A stretch of DNA of 64,000 bases. It comes from Candidatus Poribacteria bacterium (GTDB taxonomy: Bacteria; Poribacteria; WGA-4E; GCA-2687025). The stretch is taken from assembly GCA_028818695.1 (NCBI GenBank), contig JAPPNK010000026.1, positions 135,164-199,163 on the forward strand, written 5' to 3'. Positions 12,434-38,250 of this stretch are shown here, piece by piece; positions within the stretch are counted from its first letter, which is position 1; each line of letters opens with the position of its first letter. A program made the translations under genes and the position numbers. Under the pieces are notes generated by a model. The model was not told where the DNA came from and did not search any database. It was given only the letters and a program-made list of their open reading frames with translations.

Positions 12434-12700
12434 CTGACCTTTAAGGTTTCGTTGGGCATGTCGGTATGCGAACGCGGACAGCGTCTGTTGGACTCTGGAT
12501 TCCCGCTTTCGCGGGAATGGCGATTTGGAATGCGGAGGCTGTCTGGGAGAACTCTGGATTCCCGCTTTCGCGGGAATGGCGATTTGGAATGCGGAGGCTG
12601 TCTGGGAGAACTCTGGATTCCCGCTTTCGCGGGAATGACGCTCTGATTGACGGAGCCTTTTCCCATCCATAAAGGCTTTGTTCGTTCAACGGCTCCATCT
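12434..12700. repeat. degenerate MITE copy carrying three tandem 59-bp core sub-repeats
   Basis: Left end CTGACCTTTAAGGTTTCGTTGGGCATG resembles the MITE terminus. 3x tandem GGATTCCCGCTTTCGCGGGAATGGCGATTTGGAATGCGGAGGCTGTCTGGGAGAACTCT. Right end degenerate. Sits immediately upstream of the UPF0182 start. Confidence 0.7.
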
Positions 12701-17496: not shown

Positions 17497-17520
17497 AGTT
17501 GTGACATTTGAACGGATAGG
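17497..17520. repeat. solo MITE terminal fragment
   Basis: AAGTTGTGACATTTGAACGGATAGG matches the MITE terminus AAGTTGGGACATTTGAACGAATGATCG. Confidence 0.4.
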
Positions 17521-17590
17521 GCCTTCTATGCGGCGCTCTTTGAGCGCCCCTTCAGCGTTTCAATGGCGTGGACGAGATCGTCTAGCGGCA

Positions 17591-19036
17591 TCAGCTGTTT
17601 CCTTCATCTGCGCTTGCGGTTTTATCCGCCGCGCGCAGCAGCGTTTTGGATGGATCCACGCCGCAGTGTTCAAATAACAGAATCGGGTCCATGGGTATGC
17701 GAGATCGTCCGTTATCCCTTCCAACAAAAATTCCGTCCACAATCTTCGTAGATCTCATAGGGGATCCTTTAAGCGACTTCGGCTCGGAATTGACGATAAA
17801 GCGCTTTCTAGACTTTGACAGAATCGGCATCTTGTCTGACGTCAGGCGGCCCTGCTCATACAGCCATCCTGCGATTTCACTCAGAATATCGTTCCAAGAA
17901 CGTATATCAATTTCTTTCCCGTCAGGAAATCGTATGGCGGAAGGCGGGGGCGCATTTCTAGGCGGCTTGCATTCAGGCAGCGGCGTCCATCCGTCAGTCG
18001 AAGGCGAGTCTGGAATTGGCGTCGGGGTTGGAGCCTGTTTTGGCTCTGTCGGCGGAACGGGAGTCGGTTCAGGGTCTCTTGACCGCTTCAAATAAATATG
18101 GGAGTTATCGATACCGCAGTTATGGGTCAGAGCTTTTATATTTTCCAAATGCCGCATGGAACTTCCGTGCTTTGAAACATAAATGCCGTGCGCAATTTTG
18201 ACGGGCAACTTCATGTCTTTGCCCGTATGCTCGATCGGTTCCGAATTTGCAACGTAGGCGTCGCTAGTCAATCTCTTAATCGGCATCTGATCAGACGTCA
18301 ACAGCCCTTTTGAATGGAGCCATTTGGCAAGTTCCACATGAAGATCAGTCCAGTCTTGGATTGGAATCTCGCTTTCATCGGGGAATCTGATCGACGCAGG
18401 CACATATTCGTAGACTTCAAAGTAGGTCACCAGAAATCGCGATAGCGCGACCCATTTGTATTCTTCGGAAGGTCTTGTCGTAGGGACAGAAAGCGGTTCT
18501 GGAATTGGCGCCGGGGGCGGATCAAGCTTTTGCTTAGGCTCAGACGCCATAAAAGGTCGATTCGCCGCCGCGGGATTCCATGACGCGAGATTCGGCCGCC
18601 AAAGCGTCAGCAGCTGAAGCGCGCATTCATGGGTCGGCGTATCGTTAATGGCGACGCTCAGCAGGCGCTGATCGTCAACGGCATGCAGCTCCCACTTATC
18701 ACCGTCGGCAAGGCAGGCGTATGCGATCCCCGCTTCTCTTGCGCAGGTAAACAGATCGGTTCGGGCGGCAACGAGCGGGTCGCCCAGTTTCTTGATTTGG
18801 ACGAGAGCGGCAGGCTCTCCGTATGCGGCAAGCAGCGCGTAGTCGAACACATGCTCATTCAGCCGGTAGTCAGACAGTACCGCGTCAGGGTCGGCTGTGT
18901 CCCATCCAAGAGCGCGCAGCAGCGGATCCACAAGAGCGGCGCGCGTCCGCGTTCTGCTTTCGCGCAGAAAGGCGTCATGTTTCAGTATGCGCTTCTTTAG
19001 TGTTTCAATCGTTTCGGCAAGGGCGTCTAAGTTCAT
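17591..19036 (-). CDS. HsdR-N/Mrr-like PD-(D/E)xK nuclease-fold protein with two copies of an uncharacterised ~110-aa C-terminal domain (paralogue A)
   Basis: N-terminus TRTRAALVDPLLRALGWD ... DYALL ... LVQIKK (D...QxK) as in HsdR N-terminal/Mrr_cat domains. Pro-rich linkers. Repeated domain RFPD(G/E)(S/K)EI...W.D......W......LT.D.MPI ... CG(V/I)D.S. AT-richer than the genome average. Confidence 0.6.
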   Translation of the reverse strand: MNLDALAETIETLKKRILKHDAFLRESRTRTRAALVDPLLRALGWDTADPDAVLSDYRLNEHVFDYALLAAYGEPAALVQIKKLGDPLVAARTDLFTCAREAGIAYACLADGDKWELHAVDDQRLLSVAINDTPTHECALQLLTLWRPNLASWNPAAANRPFMASEPKQKLDPPPAPIPEPLSVPTTRPSEEYKWVALSRFLVTYFEVYEYVPASIRFPDESEIPIQDWTDLHVELAKWLHSKGLLTSDQMPIKRLTSDAYVANSEPIEHTGKDMKLPVKIAHGIYVSKHGSSMRHLENIKALTHNCGIDNSHIYLKRSRDPEPTPVPPTEPKQAPTPTPIPDSPSTDGWTPLPECKPPRNAPPPSAIRFPDGKEIDIRSWNDILSEIAGWLYEQGRLTSDKMPILSKSRKRFIVNSEPKSLKGSPMRSTKIVDGIFVGRDNGRSRIPMDPILLFEHCGVDPSKTLLRAADKTASADEGNS

Positions 19037-20070
19037 CCGTCATCCCCCTCGGCAACGTTGGCTGTGATCAAATACACCTCGGACGGATCAACGCCGCCAT
19101 GCTTCAGCAAAACATTAATGTTGTTTCGGGCGATCTTTGGCCATATGTCATGCTTTTCGACAAAGTATCGGCCGTTCTGGATGCTTTCAGGACTTACCAT
19201 CGGCTTTCCATTCCGATGAACCTCGGAAGTGTGAATGATGTACCTACCGGTAGACGCAAACATCCGTATCGGTATATTCTCGTCGGTCAACTTTTGATTT
19301 TGAAACAGCCATTCCGCTGTCGCTACCATCAGCCCCGCCCATTTATGGTCTTCGTCCGTTGGCGCAATTTCGCTTCCGTCTGGAAAACGAAGCGCCTTCG
19401 GGATCGCTTTCCATAACGGGGAGCTGTATCCGACCGCTTTGTACTCCGATATCGGCGTCGATTTTTCAGAAGGATCCGATTCTGATTTTTGGGTCGACTC
19501 TGTATCGGGCAGGGAGTCAGGTTCTTCGTCTTCTGGGACGTGTATTTCAATAATCGGCGGATTGACCTTCTTCACTTTGCCCGACGCTAAATTTAGCCGC
19601 CAGAGCGTCAGCAATTCCAGCGCGCATTCATGCGCCTCATCCTTCGAGATGGAGACGTTTATCATCCGCCGGTCGTTGAGATGTCCGCGCTCAAAGACGC
19701 TGTACAGCTCCCACTTATCGCCGTTGGTCAAACCCGCATACTCAATGCCCTCAGTGTTGGCGTAGTTGAGCATCTGCATGCGATGGTTGTCCAACGCCTC
19801 GCCCAGTTTTTTCGCCTCAAAGACGGCGGCGGGCTTGTCGTCCCCGTCTAGCAGGGCGTAATCGGCGCGCAGATTGCCGACATTGTATTCCAGCGTGACA
19901 AGCGCAGGATCGCCGGGATCCCATCCGAGCGCTTTGAGGATCGGGTTGATGAGCGCCCCGCGCGTCCGCGTTTCATTCTCGCTCAATGTCTGCCGATGTT
20001 GCTCGATTCGTTCTTTGACCGTTTCAATCGCTTCGATGAGAGGTTCTAACACCGCGCCTCTTTCTAACAA
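19033..20070 (-). CDS. HsdR-N-like PD-(D/E)xK nuclease-fold protein with one copy of the same C-terminal domain (paralogue B)
   Basis: ETRTRGALINPILKALGWD ... ADYALLDGDDKPAAVFEAKK (D...EAK). 4-nt overlap with the paralogue A start; divergently transcribed from the Gp37/Gp68 gene. Confidence 0.6.
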   Translation of the reverse strand: MLERGAVLEPLIEAIETVKERIEQHRQTLSENETRTRGALINPILKALGWDPGDPALVTLEYNVGNLRADYALLDGDDKPAAVFEAKKLGEALDNHRMQMLNYANTEGIEYAGLTNGDKWELYSVFERGHLNDRRMINVSISKDEAHECALELLTLWRLNLASGKVKKVNPPIIEIHVPEDEEPDSLPDTESTQKSESDPSEKSTPISEYKAVGYSSPLWKAIPKALRFPDGSEIAPTDEDHKWAGLMVATAEWLFQNQKLTDENIPIRMFASTGRYIIHTSEVHRNGKPMVSPESIQNGRYFVEKHDIWPKIARNNINVLLKHGGVDPSEVYLITANVAEGDDG

Positions 20071-20131
20071 GTTTTAAGACATGCTTGGCATTCTAGCGCG
20101 CTTTTTGCGCTGCCGCAAACCCGTTTCGCTC

Positions 20132-20160
20132 TTGACACCCAACCGCGCTGTCCATACAGT
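20132..20160 (+). promoter_or_regulatory. candidate sigma70-like promoter for the Gp37/Gp68 gene
   Basis: TTGACA - 17 nt - TACAGT, about 41 nt upstream of ATG 20202, in a divergent intergenic region. Confidence 0.25.
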
Positions 20161-20201
20161 ATCTACAAGACGAGATTTGTATCGGCTTAGGGCAAACCGC
20201 A

Positions 20202-21008
20202 ATGTCATCGATTGAGTGGACAGACGCAACATGGAACCCTGTAACCGGATGCAGCCGAGTTTCCCCCGGCTGCGACAACTGCTATATGTTCGCCATGTAC
20301 CCCCGTCTGCGGGCGATGAACGTTAACGGCTACGAAACCTCGCCTGACGACGTCCAGATGATGCGGGGGCGGCTGAACGCCCCCTTGTCATGGGTGAAGC
20401 CGCGCCTCGTCTTTGTCAACAGCATGTCTGACCTGTTTCATCCGAAGGTTGATTTTGAGTTCATTGCCGAGATCTTTCATGTGATGCAGGAGGCGTCGGA
20501 GCGGCGGGGGCATCTGTTTCAGGTGTTGACAAAGCGGCCGGGGCGCGCTGTCGCATGGTGGAAGCGGTATGCGGGCGAGTTTTCGGACAGCTGGCCGGAG
20601 CGCGTGTGGATCGGCGTTTCGGTTGAGACGCAGAAATATGCGCCGCGTTTGACGGTGTTGTCCCGCTTGCCGGCGAAGGTGCGGTTTGTGTCGGCGGAGC
20701 CGCTTCTGGGAGAGCTGGATCTGTCGGAATGGCTGGAGGCGGGGGAGCTTCATTGGGTGATCGCCGGCGGAGAGAGCGGAGCGGGCGACCGACCGATGAA
20801 ATTGGAATGGGCGCGTCGGCTGCGCGATCAATGTTTAGCGTCGGGCGTCCCCTTCTTTTTAAAGCAGCTGGGCGGCGTCTGGAATAGACGGCGAGGCGAC
20901 GCCGCTGTATTGGACGGACGGCGCTGGAAGGAGACGCCTACTTGTCAAAGCTCTTCCCATATCTATTCATACGGCGCTTCAAAAAGATCTAATCATATCT
21001 TATTTTAA
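20202..21008 (+). CDS. phage Gp37/Gp68 family protein (DUF5131) with three-Cys motif
   Basis: N-terminal IEWTDATWNPVTGC...PGCDNCY (C-x6-C-x2-C) is the hallmark of Pfam Phage_Gp37Gp68; about 265 aa. Confidence 0.8.
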   Translation: MSSIEWTDATWNPVTGCSRVSPGCDNCYMFAMYPRLRAMNVNGYETSPDDVQMMRGRLNAPLSWVKPRLVFVNSMSDLFHPKVDFEFIAEIFHVMQEASERRGHLFQVLTKRPGRAVAWWKRYAGEFSDSWPERVWIGVSVETQKYAPRLTVLSRLPAKVRFVSAEPLLGELDLSEWLEAGELHWVIAGGESGAGDRPMKLEWARRLRDQCLASGVPFFLKQLGGVWNRRRGDAAVLDGRRWKETPTCQSSSHIYSYGASKRSNHILF

Positions 21009-21068
21009 TTCGGCGATGCCTGCAAGCGCCGGACAGTCTCTAAAGGCGATGGCATTGATTTTAGAGTC

Positions 21069-21127
21069 GTTTTGGAATGCGGAGGCCGTCTAAGAGAACT
21101 CTAGATTCCCGCTTTCGCGGGAATGGC
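21069..21127. repeat. solo MITE core sub-repeat fragment
   Basis: TTTGGAATGCGGAGGCCGTCTAAGAGAACTCTAGATTCCCGCTTTCGCGGGAATGGC matches the 59-bp sub-repeat at 12480-12650. Confidence 0.55.
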
Positions 21128-21306
21128 AAGTACCCGATTTGAACAGGATTTTCGTACATCATCGTCTGCAGAGGCTATCAAGCGCCGCGGCGCATCCTGT
21201 CAATCTTTTCCGTCTTTCTAATCCTAGTTCCGACAAGAGGCGCCTGGGCATGAATAGTAAGGGATGAGAGAAAAGGAACAGAGAAGAAAGGTTATAAACG
21301 TTCCAA

Positions 21307-21759
21307 TTATCGCAACCTGCGTTCTCTCTCTTCGCGGCTTCGTTGGCGCATTTCGATGGCGAGTTGGCGTTTGGCGCGTTCCCGCTCTCGGATTCGGCGT
21401 CGTTCTTGCGACCGTTTTTCGATGGCGGACAGCGGTCGGTTTCGGTTTCGGCGCCACTGAAAACGCACAGGCACGCGCGGCTTCGGCATCGGTATCTTCT
21501 GCAGCAGCTCGCGCAGTTTGACGATCCAGCCCGGTATGGAGCGCGCCTTGCGCCCGTGTCCGCACAGCTGAATCGGCAGCCCGCGCGCGCGTTCCTTCTC
21601 GCCGAGGTTGAACTCGCACGAGGCGCAATCGCCGCTGTCGCGCAGGAAGCCCGACAACATTGGGCATGCGACGCAGACGCGCTGCCCGATCTGCTTTCGG
21701 CGTATCTTGCGCGGACGCGCCTCAAAAAACCGCTCTATCAAACGCATCGGACTATTCAT
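21307..21759 (-). CDS. hypothetical Cys-rich (zinc-ribbon-like) protein with Arg-rich tail; doubtful
   Basis: CVACP...CASCEF...LCGHG pattern; 8-nt overlap with the upstream nuclease-like gene. The Arg-rich C-terminal half may be GC-rich noise. Confidence 0.25.
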   Translation of the reverse strand: MNSPMRLIERFFEARPRKIRRKQIGQRVCVACPMLSGFLRDSGDCASCEFNLGEKERARGLPIQLCGHGRKARSIPGWIVKLRELLQKIPMPKPRVPVRFQWRRNRNRPLSAIEKRSQERRRIRERERAKRQLAIEMRQRSREERERRLR

Positions 21760-23279: not shown

Positions 23280-23375
23280 CGACAGGGCGCGCGGCTTTGA
23301 CATCGGGTTTTTAGCGGCGGCTCGCGCAAACCTCGCGGCTCATCTACAAGCGCCTATCCCTCTGCTCGTTATCCC

Positions 23376-24557
23376 CTATCGGTCAAGATGAAAGATGACG
23401 CGAACAGATGATTCGTCCACTTCTAGCTCCGGCTCCGTGCCGTTGAACTCAAGCATTGCCTTGCGCATGATCGGCCAGCCTCGACCGCGTCGTTCCATGA
23501 GTTTCCGCTCCAACATATAGTTCGCTACCCATTCGTTTCTCGATCGGGGAATCGCTCCTGCGCGAACGCTGGCGGGCGTCATGCTGTTCGGCAGCGCGCC
23601 GGGGCTGGTAACCGCCGCCTGACGTGAAAACACTTCAAAAAGAATCTTGGATCCTATGACTGCATAATCGCGGTGAACAACTGCATTGACCAGCGCTTCC
23701 CTAACCGCTTTTAACGGCAGCAGATGCCTATCTTCTCGATATAAACCTTTGTAAACTTCTTGGCGTCCGAGACCTTGGAACCATCCCTCCGCGCGCTCCA
23801 CCTGTTCGTCCAGCCGCCCCTTCGCTTCGCTGACGATGATCGTCTCTGAAGCTCGATCGCCGCCCGCATAAGCGACGCATTCAATCCAAAAGTTGCCTGT
23901 TTGCGGATAGCGCTGCGGCTCGTTCCCGAACGCGAGAATTCCGTAGAGCGTCGCGCGCCGTTCGCCGTCAGATTCGGCAAGGACGCGGCGGTTGACAAGA
24001 TCGTTTTCCGGGCTTGGCTGAGGGTCTTCCTCCATATCAAGCCCATGCTCCCTCAGATAGTCTCGGAAGCATTCCAAGTTGATGCTTTCCACGCCGGCGG
24101 CTTTTAGGACGCGCTCTTCGGTCATGATATACCCGAAATCGTTGTATAGCCCTTGCAGCTCCGTTGGCGAAGGCTCAACGTTGCTGCGCCCTCGGCGAAC
24201 GAAGACCCTTCCTCCTGTGCGCATCGGTTCAAATCCGCGCTGTCGGGAAACCTCTATCCAGTGAACCCAGCCGTCAGAACTTTCATGACGGCCAAGGCGC
24301 GCGGACACAGGGGCGCTGCAGCCTGTCTGTAGGAATCCGGTCAACCGTTCTTGAACCTTTTCCGCGCCCTCTTTCACTCCGACGATCTCGCGCGTCTTGT
24401 TCTCCACCCCCAATATGACGACTCCGCCCCTCGTATTTGCGAACGCGCACATTGCCTCGCAAATTTTTTTGCCGTCTCCTATGCCTCGCTTGAATTCGAC
24501 CTGGTCGCCTTCACCCGATTCGATTCGTTCGAGTATTTCGAGCCATGTCATTTTCAT
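23376..24557 (-). CDS. AlbA_2 (Schlafen-like) DNA-binding domain + HATPase_c_4 protein
   Basis: N-terminal E..EFK...........AFANT.GG....GV (AlbA_2) and a C-terminal GHKL-like region ending RGRG; 0-10 nt from the upstream ATPase stop (operon). Confidence 0.65.
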   Translation of the reverse strand: MKMTWLEILERIESGEGDQVEFKRGIGDGKKICEAMCAFANTRGGVVILGVENKTREIVGVKEGAEKVQERLTGFLQTGCSAPVSARLGRHESSDGWVHWIEVSRQRGFEPMRTGGRVFVRRGRSNVEPSPTELQGLYNDFGYIMTEERVLKAAGVESINLECFRDYLREHGLDMEEDPQPSPENDLVNRRVLAESDGERRATLYGILAFGNEPQRYPQTGNFWIECVAYAGGDRASETIIVSEAKGRLDEQVERAEGWFQGLGRQEVYKGLYREDRHLLPLKAVREALVNAVVHRDYAVIGSKILFEVFSRQAAVTSPGALPNSMTPASVRAGAIPRSRNEWVANYMLERKLMERRGRGWPIMRKAMLEFNGTEPELEVDESSVRVIFHLDR

Positions 24558-24562
24558 GTCCT

Positions 24563-27361
24563 TCAAAACCCATACTTTACGCGCCGCAGATGAAAAGCAT
24601 AGCCTCCTCCGTCCACCGTTTGAACGATGGCATTGCGAACGGCTGGCTCTTCAATAGCTCCGTCCTGCTCAACCCAGCCATGATTCGCGGTCGCTTCCAG
24701 CTGAATGACCTGATCGGCGTCCCCGTTTACAACGATGTTCGCGTTATGCGTTGCGATAATGATCTGTCGGCGGCCTTTTAGCCGCTTCAACGCCGGCAGG
24801 ATAGCGTCAAATAGAAATCGGTTGTCTATTTCGTCTTCGGGCTGGTCAATCACTAGAGGACGGTTGTCGTCCGTCTCCAACAGCAAGGAGAGCAAGAGGC
24901 TCACCCGTTTGCCTCCAGAGAGCTGATCCAAAGGACGGTATTTGTCTTCTTCTATCTTCGACTCCAATAGATAGCGATCTCCGCAGCGAATCGCCTTTAA
25001 CTCGCGCAGTTTCGAGCGGGTAAGATTCTCTCTAAACGTAGATTGCACAGCGCCGCTCATTCCGACAGACGCTAAATCATCGTTTTCAAAAGCTGCGATC
25101 AACTTGCCGGACGACGGCCGTTCTTTCTGATCGTTCCACCACCTCGTCACTCCCCGCTGATTTAGATTCCTCACAAAGCGGTCAAGAGGCAGCAAATCTC
25201 CCTCGTCAATGCGGCGGGCGGAAATCTGGCCTTCAAACTTTTCAGCAATCGCTTTGATCGCCCGGTCGAAGGCGCGCCGCTGCTCTTCCGCCAGATGTTT
25301 TCTTTCTTCCAGCAGCTTTTCAAGCAAGCTTTCCTCTTTGCGGCGCGTTTCCTGTATTTCACGAAATGCCGCCTCATAACTCTCTAAAAGAGTCGCTTGA
25401 CGGCTCAGCGCCTGAAACTCATCAATCTTGGAGCTGTCCATGCCTTTGGCCGCGAGCTTACGGTTCATATCGCCGCGAACATTCTGCTCATTCGTTTTCA
25501 GAACATCCATGATGGATTCAATGACAGCGTCGGCATTGGTCAGCTCATCCATCGCGTCGCGAATCGAAGCGGCGATGCTTTTCCAACGCGCGCGAAACGC
25601 CTCCGCCTGTTCCTCCACGCCGGCCGCCAACAGCAGATCCGCCAAAGCGCCGTCAATATCGGGCATGTCAATACCTTCGGCAGATTGCAGCGCGCTGTGG
25701 ATTGCTTCGGCAAGATCTTTGGACGCTTCCGCGGAGTCCCGCCAACGCCCCAAGTCCCGCGACGCCCGATGATACTCTTCAATGCCGGCTTCCGAAAAGG
25801 CATCCAAGGCATCGGCGGCGCGGCGGCAGCGCTCACAGGACTGCTCTGCATCTGCAGCTTCTTCATCAAGTTGATCAATCCTCTTGGCAGCATTGCGCAG
25901 CTCATCATCCATCCCGCGCAGCCGCTCATCCCGCACTTCAATTTCGGCCGCCTCGGCAGCTGCGAACCGAGCAAGAACCTCGTCGACCGCATCAGGTTCT
26001 TGAGCGAGTCTTTGAAGTTCATTCTGCGAGAAAAATACGGCAGGCCAGCGGTCAAAATGCTCTGCTGTTGGATCGCCGCCCTTAAGTTCTAACGCGACAT
26101 CAGCCGAGCCGCTGCCGAGAAATCGCTTATAGCCGCGAGATTCGATCTGGTTTTTCAGCTTCTCCATATCATTGCGCTGGTCGTCATCAGGATTATTGCC
26201 AGGCTTTACTTTAGGAAGGGGGGCTCCGATATGAACACGGAGGCCGTCAAGAAACGTGCTTTTACCGGTCATGCTGCCGCCAATGATGCATGTCAAATCG
26301 GGGTGAAAGTCGAAGCGCGTTCCCGAATCGCCGCCAAAGAACGAAGCTTTGCCTTTGACCGTGACCGATCTTAGCCAAGAGTGCTCGCGCGCTGTCTCAT
26401 CGGGCGAGTCTGAAATCTCGACCAGTTTTCCGCTCTCGCTGCGTTCATAAGCGATGCGTATCCGCGAATCGCCGGCGAGAAACGCTTGGCGCAGCGCTTC
26501 GATCCGCGGGCTGGCGAGCTTGAACCAAGTATATTGATTGCCAATTTCCTCAACCAAATTTGCGTCGCTGCAGTGGAACAACGCGTCACGGTACTTTTTC
26601 TTTAAATCATGGTCATTTGAGAACCGATGGTCTTCCAAGACATCTTCAGGAAGCTTTTTGCTGTTAAGGCCTAGACCCGTTAATTCGTCGTGCGGAAAGG
26701 TATCCCAGACTTGCGCTCTTTGCTCCTTTAAAAGGCCTTTCTTGGAAAAGATATGAGGGGCGAGCGCAATATAGCTCCACGGGTTATCTCTGTCATGAAA
26801 CTCACGTAGTTCTTTAAACGCTTCCTTTGCTCTATAGCTAGATATTTGAAGCTCATTGCTTTTCCAAGGTTGCCTGTTCTTCATGACAAGATCGAATGCG
26901 CTTAAATAGGCGTTGCGCCCGATTTCGGGGTCAAACAGAAAAAGCATATGCAGCCCGCCATGACCGTCATGAAGCGACGGCTCGAAGCCTGGGAACACGG
27001 CGTATATCTTTTCTCGGAACGGCTTGCCATCGTCGTCATCGCCTTCGTTCCACTCCTGCACGATCTGCCATACCGCGCTCATGTCGCCGTGATCGCTCAT
27101 GCGCGGTCGGTGCGGCGTTAGACCGAGTACGCGGACGCCCTTTTTCACGGCATTTTGTAGAAATATTCGAGCGTAAGCGCGAAGCTCATCCTCTGACCAG
27201 TCTGATGACGCATTGCAAGGCGGGTTAACGCCTTCCGGAACCTTGACCTGGCAGCCAGGCAGGTCGTCTATCGTATGGATTTGAAGATCCGCCTTGAACC
27301 ACCGCGCGCCAGGCACCTCCTCCCGCCAAAAGTCCGTTTCGTTCCGCTCGAAATCTGCCAT
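24563..27361 (-). CDS. fusion of N-terminal PHP-type phosphoesterase domain with SMC/Rad50-like ABC ATPase (coiled-coil)
   Basis: N-terminus ADLQIHTIDD...LGLTPH...FPGFEPS (PHP-like motifs). Walker A IIGGSMTGKST (about 26255-26285). Long coiled-coil. ABC signature LSGGKRVSL (about 24893-24925). Walker B/D-loop LVIDQPEDEID (about 24824-24856). H-loop IIATHN. Confidence 0.7.
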   Translation of the reverse strand: MADFERNETDFWREEVPGARWFKADLQIHTIDDLPGCQVKVPEGVNPPCNASSDWSEDELRAYARIFLQNAVKKGVRVLGLTPHRPRMSDHGDMSAVWQIVQEWNEGDDDDGKPFREKIYAVFPGFEPSLHDGHGGLHMLFLFDPEIGRNAYLSAFDLVMKNRQPWKSNELQISSYRAKEAFKELREFHDRDNPWSYIALAPHIFSKKGLLKEQRAQVWDTFPHDELTGLGLNSKKLPEDVLEDHRFSNDHDLKKKYRDALFHCSDANLVEEIGNQYTWFKLASPRIEALRQAFLAGDSRIRIAYERSESGKLVEISDSPDETAREHSWLRSVTVKGKASFFGGDSGTRFDFHPDLTCIIGGSMTGKSTFLDGLRVHIGAPLPKVKPGNNPDDDQRNDMEKLKNQIESRGYKRFLGSGSADVALELKGGDPTAEHFDRWPAVFFSQNELQRLAQEPDAVDEVLARFAAAEAAEIEVRDERLRGMDDELRNAAKRIDQLDEEAADAEQSCERCRRAADALDAFSEAGIEEYHRASRDLGRWRDSAEASKDLAEAIHSALQSAEGIDMPDIDGALADLLLAAGVEEQAEAFRARWKSIAASIRDAMDELTNADAVIESIMDVLKTNEQNVRGDMNRKLAAKGMDSSKIDEFQALSRQATLLESYEAAFREIQETRRKEESLLEKLLEERKHLAEEQRRAFDRAIKAIAEKFEGQISARRIDEGDLLPLDRFVRNLNQRGVTRWWNDQKERPSSGKLIAAFENDDLASVGMSGAVQSTFRENLTRSKLRELKAIRCGDRYLLESKIEEDKYRPLDQLSGGKRVSLLLSLLLETDDNRPLVIDQPEDEIDNRFLFDAILPALKRLKGRRQIIIATHNANIVVNGDADQVIQLEATANHGWVEQDGAIEEPAVRNAIVQTVDGGGYAFHLRRVKYGF

Positions 27362-27520
27362 AAAAACTCCTAAGTCCGCTGCTCAATCCTGCTCACGCGC
27401 AACAGCCCGACACCGCATTAAACTTGTATCCAATAAAGCCAGTTTGTCAAACTTATCTGCGCAAGCGTGAGCTTACAGGGAGGGAAGCGTCCATCCACAG
27501 CCCCGTCCCTCCGCTGCCTA

Positions 27521-28585
27521 TCAGGAAAGGCGCCACAGCCGGACGGCGTCGCAGTTCGTTCCCGCCGCGAGCGTCTTGCCGTCCGGCGAAAACGCGAAAT
27601 CATAGACCGTCAGCGTCATTTCTTCTATCTCGCGGAGCAGCTCCCCGCGCTCCACATTCCACAGCCGCGCCGCGTTGCCGTCGCTCCCGGTCGCCAGCGT
27701 CTTGCCGTCCGGCGAAAACGCCAGCGAAATCACCGCGTCTTTGTTGACGCCCCAAGCGACCGTCTTCGGCGACGGATTGGAGCCTGCAAAAGCCTCCAGC
27801 CGCTCGCCCGTGTCGACCTCCCACAGCAGCGCGGCGTTGTCGTTCCCGCCGCTCGCCAGCAGCGACCCGTCCGGCGAAAACGCGAGCGAGAGGACATCGT
27901 CCGTATGCCCCTTCAATGTTGCCGTCAACGCTTCGGTTTCGATGTCCCGCAACAGGACGGAGCGGTCATGTCCGCCGGCGGCGAGCGTTTTGCCGTCCGG
28001 CGACAAGGCGGCGGCGCCGTTTCCTTCAAAGGTTTTCAACAGCTCGGCGGTCTCAACATCCCACAGCCGAACAAGATTGTCGGCGGCGCCTGTGACGAGC
28101 GTTTTGCCGTCCGGAGAAAAAGCGAGCAGACCGACGGCGCTCTCATGCGGCAGGTTTGTCATCAGCTTCGGCTCCTCAATGCTCTGCTGTTGGACGCTCT
28201 GCCCCCTTATCTTTTCGGTCGTCCAAACGATGACAACCGGCTCATAGGCGTCGGAGTTGACGCTCCATAGATGGACCGCGCTGCCGTCCCCGCCGGAGGC
28301 GAGCGTCTTGCCGTCGGGCGAGAAGGCGACCGTCCGCACAGGTCCATGATGCGCCAGCGATCGGAGATGCGCCCCTGTGCCGGCGTCCCAAAGGCGAACC
28401 GTTCTGTCCCATCCGCCTGTCGCTAACAGCGTTCCGTCCGGCGAATACGCGACCGAGCAGATGTGGCTCGTATGTCCATGAACGGCGACTCCCTCAATAT
28501 AATGGGGAATATGGTACTTGCTTCGCTCAACCTGCCGAGGGCGCATCTTTTCAAGTATGATCGGGTTCATCCATCTCCCATTCAT
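27521..28585 (-). CDS. WD40 beta-propeller protein (paralogue a)
   Basis: 7 WD repeats (FSPDGKTLA.G..D..VRLWD); N-terminal YHIPHYIEG motif shared with paralogues b and c. Confidence 0.85.
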   Translation of the reverse strand: MNGRWMNPIILEKMRPRQVERSKYHIPHYIEGVAVHGHTSHICSVAYSPDGTLLATGGWDRTVRLWDAGTGAHLRSLAHHGPVRTVAFSPDGKTLASGGDGSAVHLWSVNSDAYEPVVIVWTTEKIRGQSVQQQSIEEPKLMTNLPHESAVGLLAFSPDGKTLVTGAADNLVRLWDVETAELLKTFEGNGAAALSPDGKTLAAGGHDRSVLLRDIETEALTATLKGHTDDVLSLAFSPDGSLLASGGNDNAALLWEVDTGERLEAFAGSNPSPKTVAWGVNKDAVISLAFSPDGKTLATGSDGNAARLWNVERGELLREIEEMTLTVYDFAFSPDGKTLAAGTNCDAVRLWRLS

Positions 28586-28740
28586 TGAGAAATGCCGTCT
28601 GTGTCCGAAGCTGTGTTAATCCTTAAAGATAGAACAACGGCAAGGGCGGAGTCGCTCTCGGACAAGTTGAATCGCATCCGCTGTCGGCGCGGTTTAGGCA
28701 GGGCGGGAAGCGTCCGCAGCCCCCGCCCTTTCTCCGCCTA

Positions 28741-29784
28741 TCAGGACAGGTCCCACAGCTGGACGGTGTCATAATGCGTCCCCGCCGCAAGCGTCTTGCC
28801 GTCCGGCGAAAACGCGACATCATAGATTGTTAGCGTCATCCCCTCCAGCTCCCGAATCAGCTCCCGACGCTCCACATCCCAAAGCCGTATTGTGTTGCCG
28901 ATGCTGCCGGTTGCGAGCGTCTTGCCGTCCGGCGAAAACGCGACCGACTCAATCGAGTCCTTGCTGTCTTCCCATACGCGCGTCTTCGGCGACGGCTCCG
29001 ACACGCCGTCAAATGCCGCCAGCCTCTCGCCGCTTTCAATGTCCCACAGCAGGGCGGCGTTGTCCTCCCCGCCGCTGGCGAGCAGCTTTCCGTCCGGCGA
29101 AAAAGCGAGCGAGCAAACGCTGTCTGTATGCCCCTCAAAAGTTTTTGCCAGCTGTTCGGTTTCGATGTCCCACAACAGGACGGAGCGGTCATGTCCGCCG
29201 GCGGCGATCGTCCTGCCGTCCGGCGACAAGGCGGCTGCCCGATTTCCTTCAAAGGTTTTCAACAGCTCGGCGGTCTCGGCATCCCACAGGCGAACAAGGT
29301 TGTCGACGGCGCCTGTGACAAGCGTCTTGCCGTCGGGAGAAAAGGCGGCAGATCTCACCATGCCCCCATGCGGCAGCATTTTATGATGCTTGCGTTCTTC
29401 GAAGCTCTTCCGTTCGACGCGCCGCCCGTCCGGTTCTGTCGACCATGTGGTTGTGATGGAGCTCTCAACGGGTTCATAGTCGACGCTCCATAGCATGACC
29501 TCGTTTTCTTCGGAGCCTGCGGCAAGCGTCTTGCTGTCGGGAGAAAAGGCGAGCGTCCAGACGGACCCTTTCAGCGACGTTGAGCGAATTTGCGCCCCTG
29601 TGTCGGCGTCCCACAGGCGAACTGTCTTGTCCCATCCGCCGGTCGCCAGAAGCTTCCCGTCCGGCGAGAAGGCGACCGAGAAGATATGGCTGTCATGACC
29701 GCTGATGATAATTCCCTCAACATAATGCGGAATCTGGTAGTTTTTCGATTCCAGCTGTCGGGCGCGCATCTCTTGAAAAGCCAT
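28741..29784 (-). CDS. WD40 beta-propeller protein (paralogue b)
   Basis: First about 100 aa identical to paralogue c; 7 WD repeats. Confidence 0.85.
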   Translation of the reverse strand: MAFQEMRARQLESKNYQIPHYVEGIIISGHDSHIFSVAFSPDGKLLATGGWDKTVRLWDADTGAQIRSTSLKGSVWTLAFSPDSKTLAAGSEENEVMLWSVDYEPVESSITTTWSTEPDGRRVERKSFEERKHHKMLPHGGMVRSAAFSPDGKTLVTGAVDNLVRLWDAETAELLKTFEGNRAAALSPDGRTIAAGGHDRSVLLWDIETEQLAKTFEGHTDSVCSLAFSPDGKLLASGGEDNAALLWDIESGERLAAFDGVSEPSPKTRVWEDSKDSIESVAFSPDGKTLATGSIGNTIRLWDVERRELIRELEGMTLTIYDVAFSPDGKTLAAGTHYDTVQLWDLS

Positions 29785-29875
29785 GATATTTGTCCTCCGT
29801 TCATCTGAAAGCGATCAATTCGTATGCTTGTCTGTAGAAGATAACATGGAGGCGGAATCAAATCAAGCGGACGGG

Positions 29876-30042
29876 CTGACCTTAGCGCTTTAGTTGGGAC
29901 ATGTCGACATGCGAACGCGGACGTCGTCTGTTGGACTCTGGATTCCCGCTTTCGCGGGAATGACGGCCTGGTTGGCGGCGCCTGTTTCCCATAAATAGAG
30001 CGATCATTCGTTCAAATGTCCCAACTTTACGTATGAGGTCGG
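29876..30042. mobile_element. MITE-like element copy with target-site duplication
   Basis: Inverted orientation relative to copy 1; flanked by direct GGACGGG / GGACGGG. The paralogous site upstream of WD40-c (about 31196-31210) has a single GGACGGG directly followed by TTTCCGCCCC (empty site). Confidence 0.75.
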
Positions 30043-30069
30043 GACGGGTTTCTGCCCCTTCGCCGCCTG

Positions 30070-33231: not shown

Positions 33232-36200
33232 ATGCAGATTTCCAACGACAGCGACCGCGCCATCGCCGAGGCTCTGGACGAACTAAATGAGATGAGTTCT
33301 CAAGCGACAGACGGCAAGTGGCTGGAAGAGATCACCGTAGACGCAGGTCCGCACATCAGGGACTGGGACGTCTTGGAATGCTGGAGCTGGGCGGATTGGC
33401 CCGATCGGTACCGTATCTTTTCCGTCGATTCCAAGACGGATCTTGGCATCGACGTTGTGGCGAAGCGTCGCAGCGATGGCAAGCATATCGCCGTCCAATG
33501 CAAGTCGCGTCGGTTGGATGAACATGGCAACGGCGCTCCCGTCTTGAAACACGAGATGGACAAGTTTATCAGCGCGTCGGCGAATCCGTTTTGGGCGGAG
33601 CGGTGGCTCGTCACGAACGGCAGCATTCCGCAAAGCCCGCAGCTCCAATCCGCCCTTAAATTGCAGAGCGATTCGGCTAAGGTTAAGTGGGTCAACATCG
33701 CTTCCGCCCTTCAACAGCAACAAAACGCCGCTGTCGAATACAGTGACCCATGCCCGCATTGCGAACCGAACCCAGACGGCGAGTTTCGCATTCAAACGAA
33801 AAACTGCATGCAGCGGGAAGCGGTCAAAAACAGCGTCCGCATTCTGAAAGAGCATGAGCAGTCGGACAGCGGCGGACTGCCAATCGGTCAAGCGCGCGGC
33901 AGGATCATCCTGCCCTGCGGAACCGGCAAAACCCGCATCTCTCTGCGGATTGTGGAAAAGCTGACAGCGCAGGGCGAGCTCTCCATCGTGCTTTGCCCGT
34001 CCATCGCCCTCGTCGCGCAAATTCGGCGGGAGTATCTGCAGCATAATAACGTTAAAATAAGAGCATTGGCGGTCTGTTCTGATAAAACGGCGGGATACAA
34101 CCCGAAAAAAGAGGACGCTGTCGTCAACAGCGACGACCCCACCATTGACCGAAGCAACGTGAGCGCGGCGGAAGTGAAAGGGATGGTGACGACCGATCCG
34201 AACGAGATCGCCGAATGGATCCAAGACCCGATGAGCGAAGGAGCCGTCAACGTCATCTTCGGAACCTATCAGAGCGGACGCCGCATCGCCGAGGCGCTGC
34301 GCCAAACGGAGACTACGGCAAAGGTACTCATTGCGGACGAAGCGCATCGAACCGCCGGCTTCAGGCAAACAAAAGGCAAGAACGCGTCTAAAGTGGAAGA
34401 GAATATACGAAGCTTCACCCTCTGCCATGACAACGACAAATTCCCCGCAACATACCGCGTCTATCAAACGGCGACGCCGAAACAGTACAGCGGAGCGAAA
34501 CAAATCAGTAAAAATGCCGACTACATCATCCGCTCCATGGACGATGAAACCGTCTTTGGGGTTGAGCTGTACCGCAAATCCTACGTCGAAGCGGTCGAGA
34601 ACGAATGGCTGTCCGACTACCGAATCATCGCGCTGGCGATCAACAACCATGACGCGTACGAACAAGCGAACGCGCTAGCGAAAAAGACGCTAAGCAAGAA
34701 ACTGAATACGAACAACTACATACGCGGACTCGCGTTTGCGCTGGCGATGGGCGGAGCGGCGCAAGACGCAGGCGAGGACGATATCAAACTCGAATCATGC
34801 ATCGCTTTCATGAATACGGTCGACAAATCGAAAAACATGGCGCAAGACCTGCAAACGGACGCTGTCAAGCAGTGGGTTCAGAAATGGCTCAACGAAAACG
34901 GACAGCAAGATCGAAAAGCGGCTGATTACAGCCTCGAACATCTGGACGCCTCAAGCAACGTCACTCAACGCGACAACGGCAAAATAAAATTGGCGGACGC
35001 CGACGAAACAGCCCCGCATGGAATCCTCAATGTCGGCATCTTCGGCGAAGGAACCGACTCGCCGTCTCTCAGCGCCGTCGCCTTTCTAGAGCCGCGCAAA
35101 AGTCCCATTGACGTCGTTCAAGCGGTCGGAAGAGCGATGCGTACGGCGCCCGGCAAAAGTTACGGATACGTCATCTGCCCCATTGTCATACCCGCCAACG
35201 CCGACCCAGAACAGTGGCTCAGCACAAGCGAAAAGGAGGAAGGATGGGAAGAACTGGGGCAAATCCTGCTCGCGCTGCGGGCGCACGACAATCGGATCGA
35301 AGATGAACTGGAAAAGTTCCTAAAACTGTACATACCGCCTCCGCCGGAGATTCAGAAAACGATCGTCGCCGTCGCGCGCCAAGAAGGCAAGCGCATCCAA
35401 TATCGCGAACATGAAGGTAAACCGGGAGACGCCGAGAGAGCGCTGCAACGCGCCCTGGACGGGGAAAGCTATGAAGCGGCCGGACTGACGCCGCTCAAAG
35501 AAGAGTCAACGAACGAATTCAGCGGCGTTAGAGAGAAACCTGCCCTGCCGAAACCAAGCGAACCGATCCAGCATACCGCCATCATCGCCGGAAAGAAAAA
35601 CAGCGACGGCGGAACCGAAATGCGCATCGCCTCCGTTCAAAGAGACAAACCGAAGGCGAACGAACTCGTCGGGAAGGTGAATTTCGACAAGTCGAAGAAA
35701 AAAGCGAAAGACATGATCAATAAGGGCGACGGCGTCCGCCTGCCGCTGCCCAAACCTAGAACGCGAAGAACCGAAAAAGAACGACGGGAACTGTCCGGTA
35801 AGTTGTTCCTAGAACGGAGCGGACTGGAAGAAAGCGGAAAAGCGATCTGCATGAACCTGCTGAAAAAGTCCGGACTCTGCAGAAACCGAGTCGAAAGAGA
35901 CCTGAACATCCTAGAAGCAAGCGTCAACGAAGCGGCGCATCATCTGCGAGACGAAAAGATGGGCGCCGTACTCGACAAGCATTTCGGACTGGACAGGCTC
36001 AAAAAAACGAGCGGCAAGCAGCCGGCGGACGGAAGTACGACCGCCGCATTGCTGATGATGAACGCTGCCATGCTCCATCAGCGTATCTGCAACGGCGGCT
36101 GGTTCAAAGGCGTCAAATCGCTGAGCGAAATCAAAAACGACGCAAGAGTTATACAGCGAATCTGCAGAGAATGGGAACGCATCCTGCGGGAAGATTTTCG

Positions 36201-38250
36201 ACCCGTCTTGGAACCGGCGCTGGAGACGATCTACGCCATCGAAGAAACCGGCAAAACAAACGGACTGGAACGCGCCCTGCGCCACCTCGCTGCCGAAGCG
36301 GAACGCATCGCCGAAACCTACGCCGACATGGGAGCCGACCATGCGGGACCGCTCTTCAACAAAGTGATGGGTAATCAGGCGAGCGACGGCGCCTTCTTCA
36401 CAAGACCGCCGGCGGCGTCCATTGCCGCCCGGCTCACACTGGACGCATGCGAAGAAGCAGACGGCGAAACGGACTGGACAGACCCCGATACGTGGAAAGC
36501 GCATAAAACGATAGACCTCGCATGCGGAAGCGGAACGCTCCTGACCGCCATGCTGACCGACATGAAACGAAGGGCGAAAGAGCAAGGCGCCGACAAATCG
36601 CAAATCAGCGCGCTGCAGAAACTGGCGGTCGAAGAGACGATCAAAGGACTCGACATCAACCCCGTATCGCTACAACTGGCGGCGGCGCAGCTGACGGCGG
36701 GAAACCAGAAGATCAGCTACCGAAAGATGGGGCTTTATCAAATGCCCTACGGACCTCAGCCGAACGGACAAGCAGCGTCGGGAACGCTGGAGCTGCTGTC
36801 GCAAAAGGCGATCCTCCCGCGTGTAGAGCTGGGCATACCCGACCATCTGATCGAATCGGAAGCGGTGTGGAATCAGCATGACGACGCCGAGCTGGAAGAC
36901 GCTGTGGACGCCGCTAAAAACTGCCGCATTGTCATCATGAATCCGCCGTTTAGCAGTCGAGAGAAGATGGGCGAGAAGTTCATGAAGGAGGATCAAAAAG
37001 TGCTTCGGGCAAGATCCGACATTATGGCTAAACTTCTGATTGAAATAGATCGTGACATGGATGGATTCGTCAGTAAGTCCACAATAGCCCCCACTTTTGT
37101 TGCATTGGCTGATTACTGTTTGAATTCTGATTCCGCTGCGCTGACTATGGTACATCCTACAATAGCTCTGAGCAACACATCAGGATTGAAAGAACGAATC
37201 GTTCTCGCTCAACGCTATCATATACACACTGTGGTTACCTGCCATCAGCCAGGCCAAATGAACATGAGTCATAACATGAGTCTCAACGAAAGCATTATCA
37301 TCGCTATGCGACATAAAGAGAGGGGGTTTCCTCCTACAAGGTTCATCAACTTAGATCGAATGCCGTTTCAAGAAAGCGATGTGGAAGACCTGTATCAGTG
37401 CCTTGTTGAATGCGGCGATGGGTCAATTGCCAACGGATGGGGCGAGGTGTCCTACTGGCCGGCAAGCCGTATAAAAGCGGGCGATTGGACCCCCGCCGTC
37501 TGGCGGTCGCCTGAATTGGCGGAGGCGGCATATACATATGCTAACATCAATGAAATGCAATCTATCATAGATACTCTTGACCAGTCCCCTACAGCCACAG
37601 GCCCAGTGCTTCGCAGCTCTTTCAAGAGCACAACACCCGGCCAAAAAGGCAGTTTTCCGATATTGAAATCGAAAGGCGCCGACGCACAAAAACGGATTCA
37701 AGGCGAGCCAGATGAGTATTGGATCTCCAAAAAACAAAGCAAGGACGCCACACGAAAGATGCTGGCTAAAGTTGGCTATCTATTGATTACCGCAGGTCAA
37801 GACACCTCCACGGGGCGTCTCACAGCAGTTGCATGCGATACGAAATATGTAGGCAACGGCTGGATGCCGTTAACAGGGCTGTCTTTGGATGAAGCGAAAG
37901 CTCTAGCAGTGTTCATCAACTCGACGCCGGGGCGGCTGCAGTTGATGCGCAATCCTGGTATGAAACTGGCATTTCCTCAATACAGCGTGGCGGAAATCTC
38001 TAACATTCGCATCCCCGACATCCAAGACGCCCGCGTCTGCCGCATCTTAGCGGACTGCTGGGAAGCGACGAAAGAGATGTTGGTTCCGCAGTTCCGCGAC
38101 GGCGAATGCGAGGTTCGCGTCTTATGGGATGAGGCTGTCGCCGAAGCGATGGGCTGGGATCGGGCTGAGTTGGCTCGCCTGCGCCGCCTGCTTCACCAGG
38201 AGCCGCATGTTCGGGGGCTGGGCTATAACCAGTATGCCGACGAAGCGTAG
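33232..38250 (+). CDS. Type ISP-like single-polypeptide restriction-modification enzyme (Mrr-like nuclease + SF2 helicase-like ATPase + gamma-class N6-adenine methyltransferase + C-terminal TRD)
   Basis: Mrr_cat-like D...GIDVVAKRRSDGKHIAVQCK (about 33445-33504). Walker A LPCGTGKTRI (about 33911). DEAH box LIADEAHRT (about 34336). Motif VI QAVGRAMR (about 35118). MTase motif I DLACGSGTLL (about 36513) and motif IV NPPF (about 36937). 1672 aa, consistent with LlaGI/LlaBIII-type architecture. Confidence 0.7.
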   Translation: MQISNDSDRAIAEALDELNEMSSQATDGKWLEEITVDAGPHIRDWDVLECWSWADWPDRYRIFSVDSKTDLGIDVVAKRRSDGKHIAVQCKSRRLDEHGNGAPVLKHEMDKFISASANPFWAERWLVTNGSIPQSPQLQSALKLQSDSAKVKWVNIASALQQQQNAAVEYSDPCPHCEPNPDGEFRIQTKNCMQREAVKNSVRILKEHEQSDSGGLPIGQARGRIILPCGTGKTRISLRIVEKLTAQGELSIVLCPSIALVAQIRREYLQHNNVKIRALAVCSDKTAGYNPKKEDAVVNSDDPTIDRSNVSAAEVKGMVTTDPNEIAEWIQDPMSEGAVNVIFGTYQSGRRIAEALRQTETTAKVLIADEAHRTAGFRQTKGKNASKVEENIRSFTLCHDNDKFPATYRVYQTATPKQYSGAKQISKNADYIIRSMDDETVFGVELYRKSYVEAVENEWLSDYRIIALAINNHDAYEQANALAKKTLSKKLNTNNYIRGLAFALAMGGAAQDAGEDDIKLESCIAFMNTVDKSKNMAQDLQTDAVKQWVQKWLNENGQQDRKAADYSLEHLDASSNVTQRDNGKIKLADADETAPHGILNVGIFGEGTDSPSLSAVAFLEPRKSPIDVVQAVGRAMRTAPGKSYGYVICPIVIPANADPEQWLSTSEKEEGWEELGQILLALRAHDNRIEDELEKFLKLYIPPPPEIQKTIVAVARQEGKRIQYREHEGKPGDAERALQRALDGESYEAAGLTPLKEESTNEFSGVREKPALPKPSEPIQHTAIIAGKKNSDGGTEMRIASVQRDKPKANELVGKVNFDKSKKKAKDMINKGDGVRLPLPKPRTRRTEKERRELSGKLFLERSGLEESGKAICMNLLKKSGLCRNRVERDLNILEASVNEAAHHLRDEKMGAVLDKHFGLDRLKKTSGKQPADGSTTAALLMMNAAMLHQRICNGGWFKGVKSLSEIKNDARVIQRICREWERILREDFRPVLEPALETIYAIEETGKTNGLERALRHLAAEAERIAETYADMGADHAGPLFNKVMGNQASDGAFFTRPPAASIAARLTLDACEEADGETDWTDPDTWKAHKTIDLACGSGTLLTAMLTDMKRRAKEQGADKSQISALQKLAVEETIKGLDINPVSLQLAAAQLTAGNQKISYRKMGLYQMPYGPQPNGQAASGTLELLSQKAILPRVELGIPDHLIESEAVWNQHDDAELEDAVDAAKNCRIVIMNPPFSSREKMGEKFMKEDQKVLRARSDIMAKLLIEIDRDMDGFVSKSTIAPTFVALADYCLNSDSAALTMVHPTIALSNTSGLKERIVLAQRYHIHTVVTCHQPGQMNMSHNMSLNESIIIAMRHKERGFPPTRFINLDRMPFQESDVEDLYQCLVECGDGSIANGWGEVSYWPASRIKAGDWTPAVWRSPELAEAAYTYANINEMQSIIDTLDQSPTATGPVLRSSFKSTTPGQKGSFPILKSKGADAQKRIQGEPDEYWISKKQSKDATRKMLAKVGYLLITAGQDTSTGRLTAVACDTKYVGNGWMPLTGLSLDEAKALAVFINSTPGRLQLMRNPGMKLAFPQYSVAEISNIRIPDIQDARVCRILADCWEATKEMLVPQFRDGECEVRVLWDEAVAEAMGWDRAELARLRRLLHQEPHVRGLGYNQYADEA

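Follow-up and report, generated by a model that had tools for sequence, protein, structure and literature searches.

Paralogous nuclease-fold proteins with a repeated, probably SeqA-like C-terminal domain in a variable poribacterial locus

A 64,000-nucleotide (nt) stretch of contig JAPPNK010000026.1 from a Candidatus Poribacteria bacterium (hereafter the window, to which all coordinates refer) harbors two adjacent genes for paralogous proteins, A and B. Each protein consists of an N-terminal domain of the PD-(D/E)xK nuclease fold, followed by one (B) or two (A) copies of a C-terminal domain of ~120 amino acids (aa). We lean towards the view that A and B are modular, stand-alone, restriction-like defence nucleases located in a variable hotspot, with B active and A either a dead partner or a decaying copy. 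In the proposed mechanism, the N-terminal domain (E33, D70, ExK, and QxxxY) would supply the cutting activity, as judged from its sequence and a structural model. The SeqA-like C-terminal domains, one to four per protein, would read a feature of the DNA, i.e., a short sequence or a modification state, and would thereby position the attached nuclease for cleavage close by, the logic being that of single-chain Type IV/IIM-like restriction enzymes. B would be the active enzyme, and A, presumably co-translated with B and retaining two reader domains, could serve as a catalytically dead partner or specificity subunit, or could be a copy in decay.

Gene organization and the N-terminal nuclease domain

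The two proteins share 39% identity over 335 aa (E 4e-64), and their genes overlap at an ATGA that holds the stop codon of B and the start codon of A. The two C-terminal copies within A showed 39% identity to each other over 105 aa (BLASTP, E 5e-24), and each matched the single copy of B at E ~1e-18. Translation of B probably begins at the GTG at 20052, which lies behind AAGAGG; the resulting product of 339 aa agrees with the NCBI record and with the homologues. A Candidatus Poribacteria metagenome-assembled genome (MAG) encodes a protein with 100% identity to B. The first-pass annotation of this DNA, made from the letters alone, had described the open reading frames (ORFs), their paralogy, the overlapping operon, the repeated C-terminal domain, and a DUF5131 gene with three cysteines facing the pair, and all of these descriptions were borne out. 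It had also described A and B as AT-richer than the genome. In agreement with this, the GC content of A plus B was 0.534, the 1st percentile of windows of the same size, against a window mean of 0.587 (standard deviation 0.026). The GC content at third codon positions (GC3) was 0.56 and 0.63 in A and B, compared with 0.73–0.75 in the flanking genes for a PhyH-like protein, an S9 peptidase, and a sulfatase. A and B look horizontally acquired and defence-like. The DUF5131 gene, unlike A and B, has a host-like GC3 of 0.70.

The N-terminal domain of B matched the Pfam model HSDR_N (PF04313) with 26.3 bits, narrowly passing the gathering cut-off of 25.1, and no Pfam match was obtained for A. A Foldseek search with the AlphaFold2 (AF2) model of B (mean predicted local distance difference test, pLDDT, 86.6) retrieved three nuclease domains, those of an HsdR fragment from Vibrio (3h1t), BpuSI (3s1s), and DrdV (7lvv), at E 2e-4 to 3e-4. 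The residues E33, E61, D70, E85, K87, Q99, and Y103 were invariant among 66–120 homologues, and B keeps all of them; together they form the PD-(D/E)xK motif set with a RecB-type QxxxY. In the HsdR subunit of EcoR124I, cleavage was abolished by the double mutant Q179A,Y183A (PMC2475608). The HsdR-N-type nuclease fold assigned earlier is therefore supported by the Pfam score of B, the structural match to 3h1t, and the invariant motifs. The accompanying label "Mrr-like" had to be dropped, as neither A nor B matched Mrr_cat or Mrr_N in Pfam or PADLOC.

A differs from B at the catalytic center. At positions invariant in 120 homologues it carries the substitutions E33R, E61D, E85Q, Q99D, and Y103C, and ~15 further changes occur at family-invariant positions; its nearest relatives are at most 48% identical. 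Owing to these changes at family-invariant catalytic positions, A is very probably catalytically dead. Pfam showed no ResIII or other helicase match in B (345 aa) or A (481 aa), the remainder of each protein being taken up by the reader domains. No hsdM or hsdS lies beside the pair, whose neighbors are the PhyH-like gene and the DUF5131 gene, and no conserved methylase neighbor was found in 80 related loci. The earlier statement that A and B lack helicase or methylase partners holds on the basis of Pfam and the ORF list, which revealed no such domain in or beside them.

The C-terminal domain, its modularity, and its relatives

The C-terminal domain had been called unassignable at first. This stands insofar as no Pfam, NCBIfam, or PADLOC model matched the window copies, and it needs amending insofar as a probable remote relative was found in the C-terminal domain of SeqA. 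A profile built from 27 copies of the domain retrieved 1,881 representatives of clusters at 50% identity at E <= 1e-3, and 1,018 at E <= 1e-10, from 1.84 billion proteins, with one to four copies per protein. A matched this profile in two stretches with a total E of 3e-79. A word-indexed search using the domain alignment gave two fragments only.

The effector domains joined to this module were surveyed in the 150 best C-domain representatives, 146 of which were scanned with Pfam. The N-terminal domain was of the HsdR type in most of them (76 HSDR_N and 54 HSDR_N_2 matches). Other representatives carried the domain fused to an HNH domain (P0174), a Ser/Thr kinase with a match to PD-T4-6, a defence kinase (P0177, E 1e-54), an Mrr_N domain that matches PADLOC mREase_IV in its N-terminal part (P0230), a weak PLD-like domain (P0239), or another PD-(D/E)xK domain (P0210). 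In two further proteins it was joined to the N-terminal part of PDC-S14, a PADLOC single-gene candidate, with a GIY-YIG-like motif (P0201, E 2.5e-35), and to that of PDC-S18 (P0139, E 4.5e-38). Mean pairwise identity was 71% for the N-terminal domain and 37% for the C-terminal domain, the former being higher in 99.4% of the pairs. Rapid evolution and exchange among effector domains are typical of the modules that confer specificity or sensing in restriction and defence proteins, and by this analogy the C-terminal domain would be such a module.

Structure and weak sequence signals together make it likely that the C-terminal domain adopts a DNA-binding fold remotely related to that of SeqA-C. 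The AF2 model of the domain alone was predicted with a pLDDT of 90.5 and a predicted template modelling score of 0.85. The Pfam model of the SeqA C-terminal domain (PF03925) matched two of the 27 copies (best E 4.7e-5) and one of the 146 full proteins. Conversely, in a single directed comparison, a hidden Markov model (HMM) of 176 copies scored enterobacterial SeqA at E ~1e-5, aligning 'RVYFAADEQTLLKNGNQTKPKHVPGTPYWVITNTNTGRKCSMIEHIMQSMQ' of SeqA to 'RYlVNtePvHpnGkpF..p..i.g.lfVetnlsa....nakkLLehcg' of the family. Profile–profile alignment with hhalign gave 102 collinear columns over SeqA residues 69–175 (P 0.003). The median isoelectric point (pI) of the copies was 9.15, comparable to the 8.93 of SeqA-C. 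By analogy with SeqA, a DNA-binding role may be predicted for the domain. The SLED domain, the other relative found, binds DNA.

Several results weigh against this assignment. In all, only three of 173 members touched the Pfam SeqA model, and the hhalign probability was 5–10%; these probabilities are low because the SeqA profile was shallow, the homologue search having returned only sequences at least 88% identical to Escherichia coli SeqA, which makes the comparison a weak test. Foldseek with the domain model gave no significant match in the PDB, and the sequence profile of the domain found no match among PDB sequences. The TNTN loop of SeqA is not conserved in the family, the aligned loop being V-E/N-x-H/N-x-S-A, and hence reading of methyl-GATC cannot be assumed. 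With a pI of 6.6, the reader of B is near neutral. The N-terminal oligomerisation domain of SeqA (PF17206) found no match either, and the domain is not an orthologue of SeqA.

The same data bear on an explanation in which the C-terminal domain senses a phage protein or a small molecule rather than DNA, and the N-terminal nuclease acts as a non-specific abortive-infection effector that is set free upon sensing. Its fusion to a PD-T4-6-type kinase and its replacement of the C-terminal parts of PDC-S14 and PDC-S18 follow the pattern of swappable sensors; its fast evolution and the non-basic reader of B fit as well. We nevertheless regard this explanation as unlikely, since the only structural or sequence relatives found are the DNA-binding SeqA-C and the SLED domain, most copies are basic, and the fusion partners are mostly nucleases.

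Phage sequences were also considered, the locus having been suspected to be phage-derived. Over its core, the C-terminal domain matched PHROG 32890, a phage family of 189 positions without known function, with residues 231–307 of A at E 2.5e-8 and residues 247–307 of B at E 0.0098, and the domain may therefore also be present in phages. A scan of IMG/VR yielded no relative of the family, and tblastn against GenBank phages yielded matches to the N-terminal nuclease domain only, so that a phage origin of the locus found no support.

Genomic context was analyzed in the 80 closest family loci in GTDB genomes, one from a Poribacteria genome and 79 from others. Their lineages, represented by MAGs, were Dehalococcoidia and other Chloroflexota, Entotheonella, Bryobacterales, Latescibacterota, Rhodothermales, 'Versatilivorator', and Poribacteria. 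By lineage, almost all of these loci are typical of sponge symbionts, which suggests horizontal spread of the family within the sponge habitat. Neighbors of the family genes included toxin–antitoxin (TA) modules and other defence genes. About 39 Dehalococcoidia loci shared the order acetyl-CoA synthetase, a ~68-aa ORF, a HicB-like gene, the family gene, VapB-like and PIN genes, and Usp, with one family copy per genome at this position. The remaining loci differed in gene order, and no universal partner was found among the 80. The HicB-like protein was considered as a partner and rejected: the ~68-aa ORF upstream is presumed to encode HicA, so that the two look like a TA pair of their own, which is missing from the other lineages.

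Distant full-length homologues were found on the megaplasmid of Thermomicrobium roseum and on haloarchaeal plasmids. The T. roseum protein (L085:8001-8891; NC_011961.1, 747415-748305), annotated as hypothetical, shows 29% identity at 97% coverage. Its gene, oriented like parA-parB, is found 225 nt downstream of them, a curious site for a protein with a SeqA-like domain.

A housekeeping role in DNA maintenance, in which a MutH/SeqA-like factor would nick or mark hemimethylated DNA in repair, replication control, or segregation, could draw on the SeqA-like domain, on the single copy at a conserved site downstream of acetyl-CoA synthetase in the ~39 Dehalococcoidia loci, and on the position directly after parA-parB in T. 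roseum. We consider it quite improbable. The Poribacteria hold one to four copies, fragments among them, with cassettes that differ between 98–99% identical strains (described below). The composition of A and B is atypical, and TA modules flank the Dehalococcoidia copies. Moreover, the C-terminal domain has been shuffled onto HNH and GIY-YIG-like domains and a kinase, and both the SeqA oligomerisation domain and the GATC-contact residues are absent.

The poribacterial hotspot and the DUF5131 neighbor

Six poribacterial loci were compared, namely, the window, L001, L002, L087, L088, and L090. They share the order WD40 genes, variable genes, a 150-aa zinc-ribbon ORF, DUF5131, the family array, PhyH, S9 peptidase, and sulfatase, except that the right flank of L001 differs. 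The A/B locus is a variable hotspot between the DUF5131 and PhyH-like genes. The array consists of B and the degenerate A in the window, one protein with two reader domains in L087, two proteins with one reader domain each in L002 and L088, a 194-aa N-domain fragment plus one gene in L090, and four genes in L001. By blastn, the flanks of L090 and L087 were 98.5–99.2% identical to the window, and the segment 17516–19549 was unrelated to the sequence of either. The breakpoint of this cassette falls at residue ~174 of B, i.e., at the boundary of the N- and C-terminal domains. Near-identical strains differ in copy number and reader cassettes, a pattern that diversifying selection on a defence gene would be expected to leave.

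The DUF5131 protein facing B (Pfam PF07505, E 1.6e-81; PADLOC PDC-M41B/M30B, E ~1e-80) carries the N-terminal motif C17-x6-C24-x2-C27. The first-pass annotation had joined it with A and B into one module, and such a module, with A and B as alternative DUF5131 partners in place of TcmP, would be consistent with the adjacency being kept in all six poribacterial loci, including L001 with its different right flank. This adjacency in Poribacteria represents a single conserved syntenic position. Beyond it, none of the 79 non-poribacterial family loci had DUF5131 within 10 kb (tblastn with the window DUF5131 found poribacterial loci only), and hence no conserved linkage of DUF5131 with these nuclease genes exists among the surveyed loci. 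At the same site in L090, DUF5131 overlaps a gene for a true TcmP of 362 aa (TIGR04474, 179.9 bits against a cut-off of 53; PDC-M30A, E 1.8e-54), forming the canonical pair. The 1.18-kb tcmP (L090:4965-6143) is replaced in the window by 390 nt, and the window DUF5131 is 94% identical to the L090 copy over residues 1–246, its last ~22 codons being different. L087 also lacks tcmP; the PDC-M30-type pair is thus polymorphic among strains. TcmP, the dedicated partner of DUF5131, is missing from the window, as A, B, the 150-aa ORF, and a 329-aa ORF gave no TIGR04474 or PDC-M30A match and tblastn with the L090 TcmP was blank.

In relation to PDC-M30 (TcmP plus DUF5131), the window DUF5131 fits the DUF5131 component, and L090 holds the full pair; the TcmP component is deleted in the window, and A and B fit neither component, matching neither PDC-M30A nor PDC-M41A. 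In addition, DUF5131 is 82–94% conserved between strains, whereas the array is swapped or just 40–57% identical, and the GC3 of DUF5131 differs from that of A and B. A single functional module is accordingly highly improbable. Given the DUF5131–TcmP pair of L090 and the loss of tcmP in the window, DUF5131 belongs to a degraded TcmP–DUF5131 pair that merely borders the A/B hotspot; it is a neighbor and not a partner.

The losses at this site could also indicate that the whole locus is decaying, A being a pseudogene in the making and B a remnant, with neither functional now. A has lost E33, E85, Q99, and Y103, an N-domain fragment of 194 aa stands at the L090 site, and the neighboring DUF5131 has lost its partner. 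This explanation has a low probability: the ORFs of A and B are intact, B keeps all the invariant residues, the ATGA coupling is preserved, and the family profile still finds strong matches in the two reader copies of A (total E 3e-79). The features of the locus are compiled in Table 1.

Table 1. Positions of the A/B genes, their domains, and adjoining features in the window
Feature	Positions	Strand	Length or residues	Description	Basis
Gene A	17591..19036	-	481 aa	Degenerate nuclease domain and two predicted reader domains	ORF
Gene B	19033..20070	-	345 aa from TTG start	Nuclease domain and one predicted reader domain	ORF
DUF5131 gene	20202..21008	+	268 aa	Gp37/Gp68	PADLOC PDC-M30B/M41B, E 2e-81
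B N-terminal domain	19576..20070	-	residues 1-165	PD-(D/E)xK, HsdR-N/RecB type; E33, D70, E85-A-K87, Q99-xxx-Y103	
B C-terminal domain	19057..19464	-	residues ~203-338	Probably SeqA-C-like	
A reader copy 1	18083..18463	-	residues ~192-318	Predicted reader domain	Profile match 192-318
A reader copy 2	17627..17989	-	residues ~350-470	Predicted reader domain; basic, pI 9.7	BLASTP and profile
Variable cassette	17516..19549			Whole of A plus linker and reader of B	blastn against L090 and L087
Intergenic stretch	20071..20201			Between the divergent B and DUF5131 genes; GC 0.51	
Scar of missing tcmP	20918..21307			Holds one copy of a ~57-nt hairpin repeat	blastn

The surroundings of the hotspot showed further features. 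The 150-aa ORF at 21307..21759 (-) has a zinc-ribbon motif, CxxC...CxxC, and its tail is very basic. The ORF is conserved at this position in all six poribacterial loci (150–164 aa), convergent with DUF5131 or, in L090, with tcmP, and found no family match in PADLOC or NCBIfam. Its identity was checked for two loci, being 89.6% to L002, while L001 is annotated in another frame. An intergenic repeat of ~57 nt with the hairpin CCCGC-TTTC-GCGGG, resembling repetitive extragenic palindromes or miniature inverted-repeat transposable elements, occurs at 12492-12637 (three tandem copies), 21071-21127, 29935-29962, and 1762-1788; the copy at 21071-21127 lies within the tcmP deletion scar. Two genes at 23376..24566 (-) and 24563..27361 (-), overlapping by 4 nt, encode a Schlafen/AlbA_2 plus HATPase_c_4 protein and an AAA-like ATPase of the TrlF family (NCBIfam NF045780, 392 bits against a cut-off of 350; PADLOC Ppl, E 7e-31). 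Both lie in a 4.2-kb block (23329-27520, GC 0.54–0.56) that is missing from L090 and L087, in which its flanks are 98–99% identical; the block looks like a defence insertion acquired separately. Three tandem WD40 paralogues of 346–354 aa follow at 27521-31110 (-), the label being based on synteny with Pfam-annotated genes of L087 and L090. The nucleotide alignments of two of these to L090 and L087 show 99% identity, and the number of paralogues varies with the strain. An ORF of 1,672 aa at 33232..38250 (+) shows, by eye, an Mrr-like D...QxK nuclease motif followed by GTGKT/DEAH helicase motifs, all in its first 400 residues. Its product may be another large restriction or defence enzyme. The region at 34–37 kb has an unusually high AT skew of 0.35–0.39.

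Proposed function and relation to known systems

Restriction-like defence by A and B, as proposed above, has to be weighed against a number of contrary points besides those already raised about SeqA. No system model of PADLOC-DB v2 fits A or B, the best matches being REase_I for the N-terminal domain (E 9e-5) and PDC-M54B (E >0.01). The kinase fusion indicates that the C-terminal domain need not target a nuclease to DNA and could sense something else. The position after acetyl-CoA synthetase, common to about half of the Dehalococcoidia loci, also fits vertical inheritance and a non-defence gene. Furthermore, the function of every family member is a prediction from sequences and models.

A narrower version of the proposal, to which we give only a slight probability, holds that the SeqA-like domains have retained the trait most characteristic of SeqA and sense a hemimethylated, or otherwise strand-asymmetric, modification state of the DNA, with tandem copies and the dead A setting the spacing or valency of the sites. 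The fused nuclease would then cut methylated foreign DNA that turns hemimethylated on replication in a host without the matching methylase. If this were true, restriction would sense the replication state of the invader DNA instead of a fixed mark.

A reader domain combined with a nuclease in a defence hotspot is a known kind of arrangement. Literature searches on SeqA-like nuclease fusions, PDC-S14, PDC-S18, and PDC-M30 returned nothing relevant. Relative to the libraries and papers searched, the new elements are the reader fold or family, its spread, and the strain-level exchange of cassettes at a domain boundary. Should the proposed reading be correct, the 1,881 clusters would represent a sizeable unannotated family built on a swappable DNA reader or sensor with at least five effector types. 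The SeqA fold, which serves replication control in the enterobacterial SeqA proteins retrieved, would then also be employed in Poribacteria, Chloroflexota, Entotheonella, Acidobacteriota, and archaea for restriction-like defence. The locus would also offer a clear case of cassette exchange at a domain boundary between strains of uncultured, sponge-symbiont-type lineages. An enrichment of defence genes in sponge symbionts has been reported (PMC5649159, PMC5099237). A plausible but mistaken guilt-by-association call is also corrected, DUF5131 pairing with TcmP and not with the A/B nucleases.

Compared with SeqA itself (PF03925; 3fmt, 3sk7, 1lrr), the C-terminal domain shows ~10% identity, is fused to nucleases or a kinase, and occurs without the oligomerisation domain or a conserved TNTN loop for reading hemimethylated GATC. 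The family ranges over Poribacteria, Chloroflexota, Entotheonella, Acidobacteriota, Latescibacterota, and haloarchaea; all SeqA homologues retrieved, by contrast, came from enterobacteria. With HsdR and the Type IIG/ISP enzymes (EcoR124I, BpuSI, and DrdV), A and B share the PD-(D/E)xK core and the order of its motifs. The spacing is likewise of the HsdR type, with ExK 15 residues past the Asp and QxxxY 12 residues past the Lys, and a conserved Glu lies on the preceding helix; the best Pfam, PADLOC, and Foldseek matches of the N-terminal domain are also to this group. Unlike these enzymes, A and B comprise just 339–481 aa and are devoid of a superfamily 2 (SF2) motor, a methyltransferase, and HsdM/HsdS partners; the fused C-terminal domain would need to provide their specificity.

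Single-chain Type IV/IIM enzymes, such as DpnI, the MspJI family, and Mrr, consist of a reader domain and a nuclease domain. The present family differs from them in that its nuclease is N-terminal and of the HsdR type, its reader is SeqA-like and not a winged-helix, SRA, or EVE domain, and modification dependence is conjectural here. It resembles them in combining a nuclease and a predicted DNA reader in a single polypeptide with no cognate methylase adjoining, and in exchanging readers among nuclease folds, one member (P0230) carrying Mrr_N.

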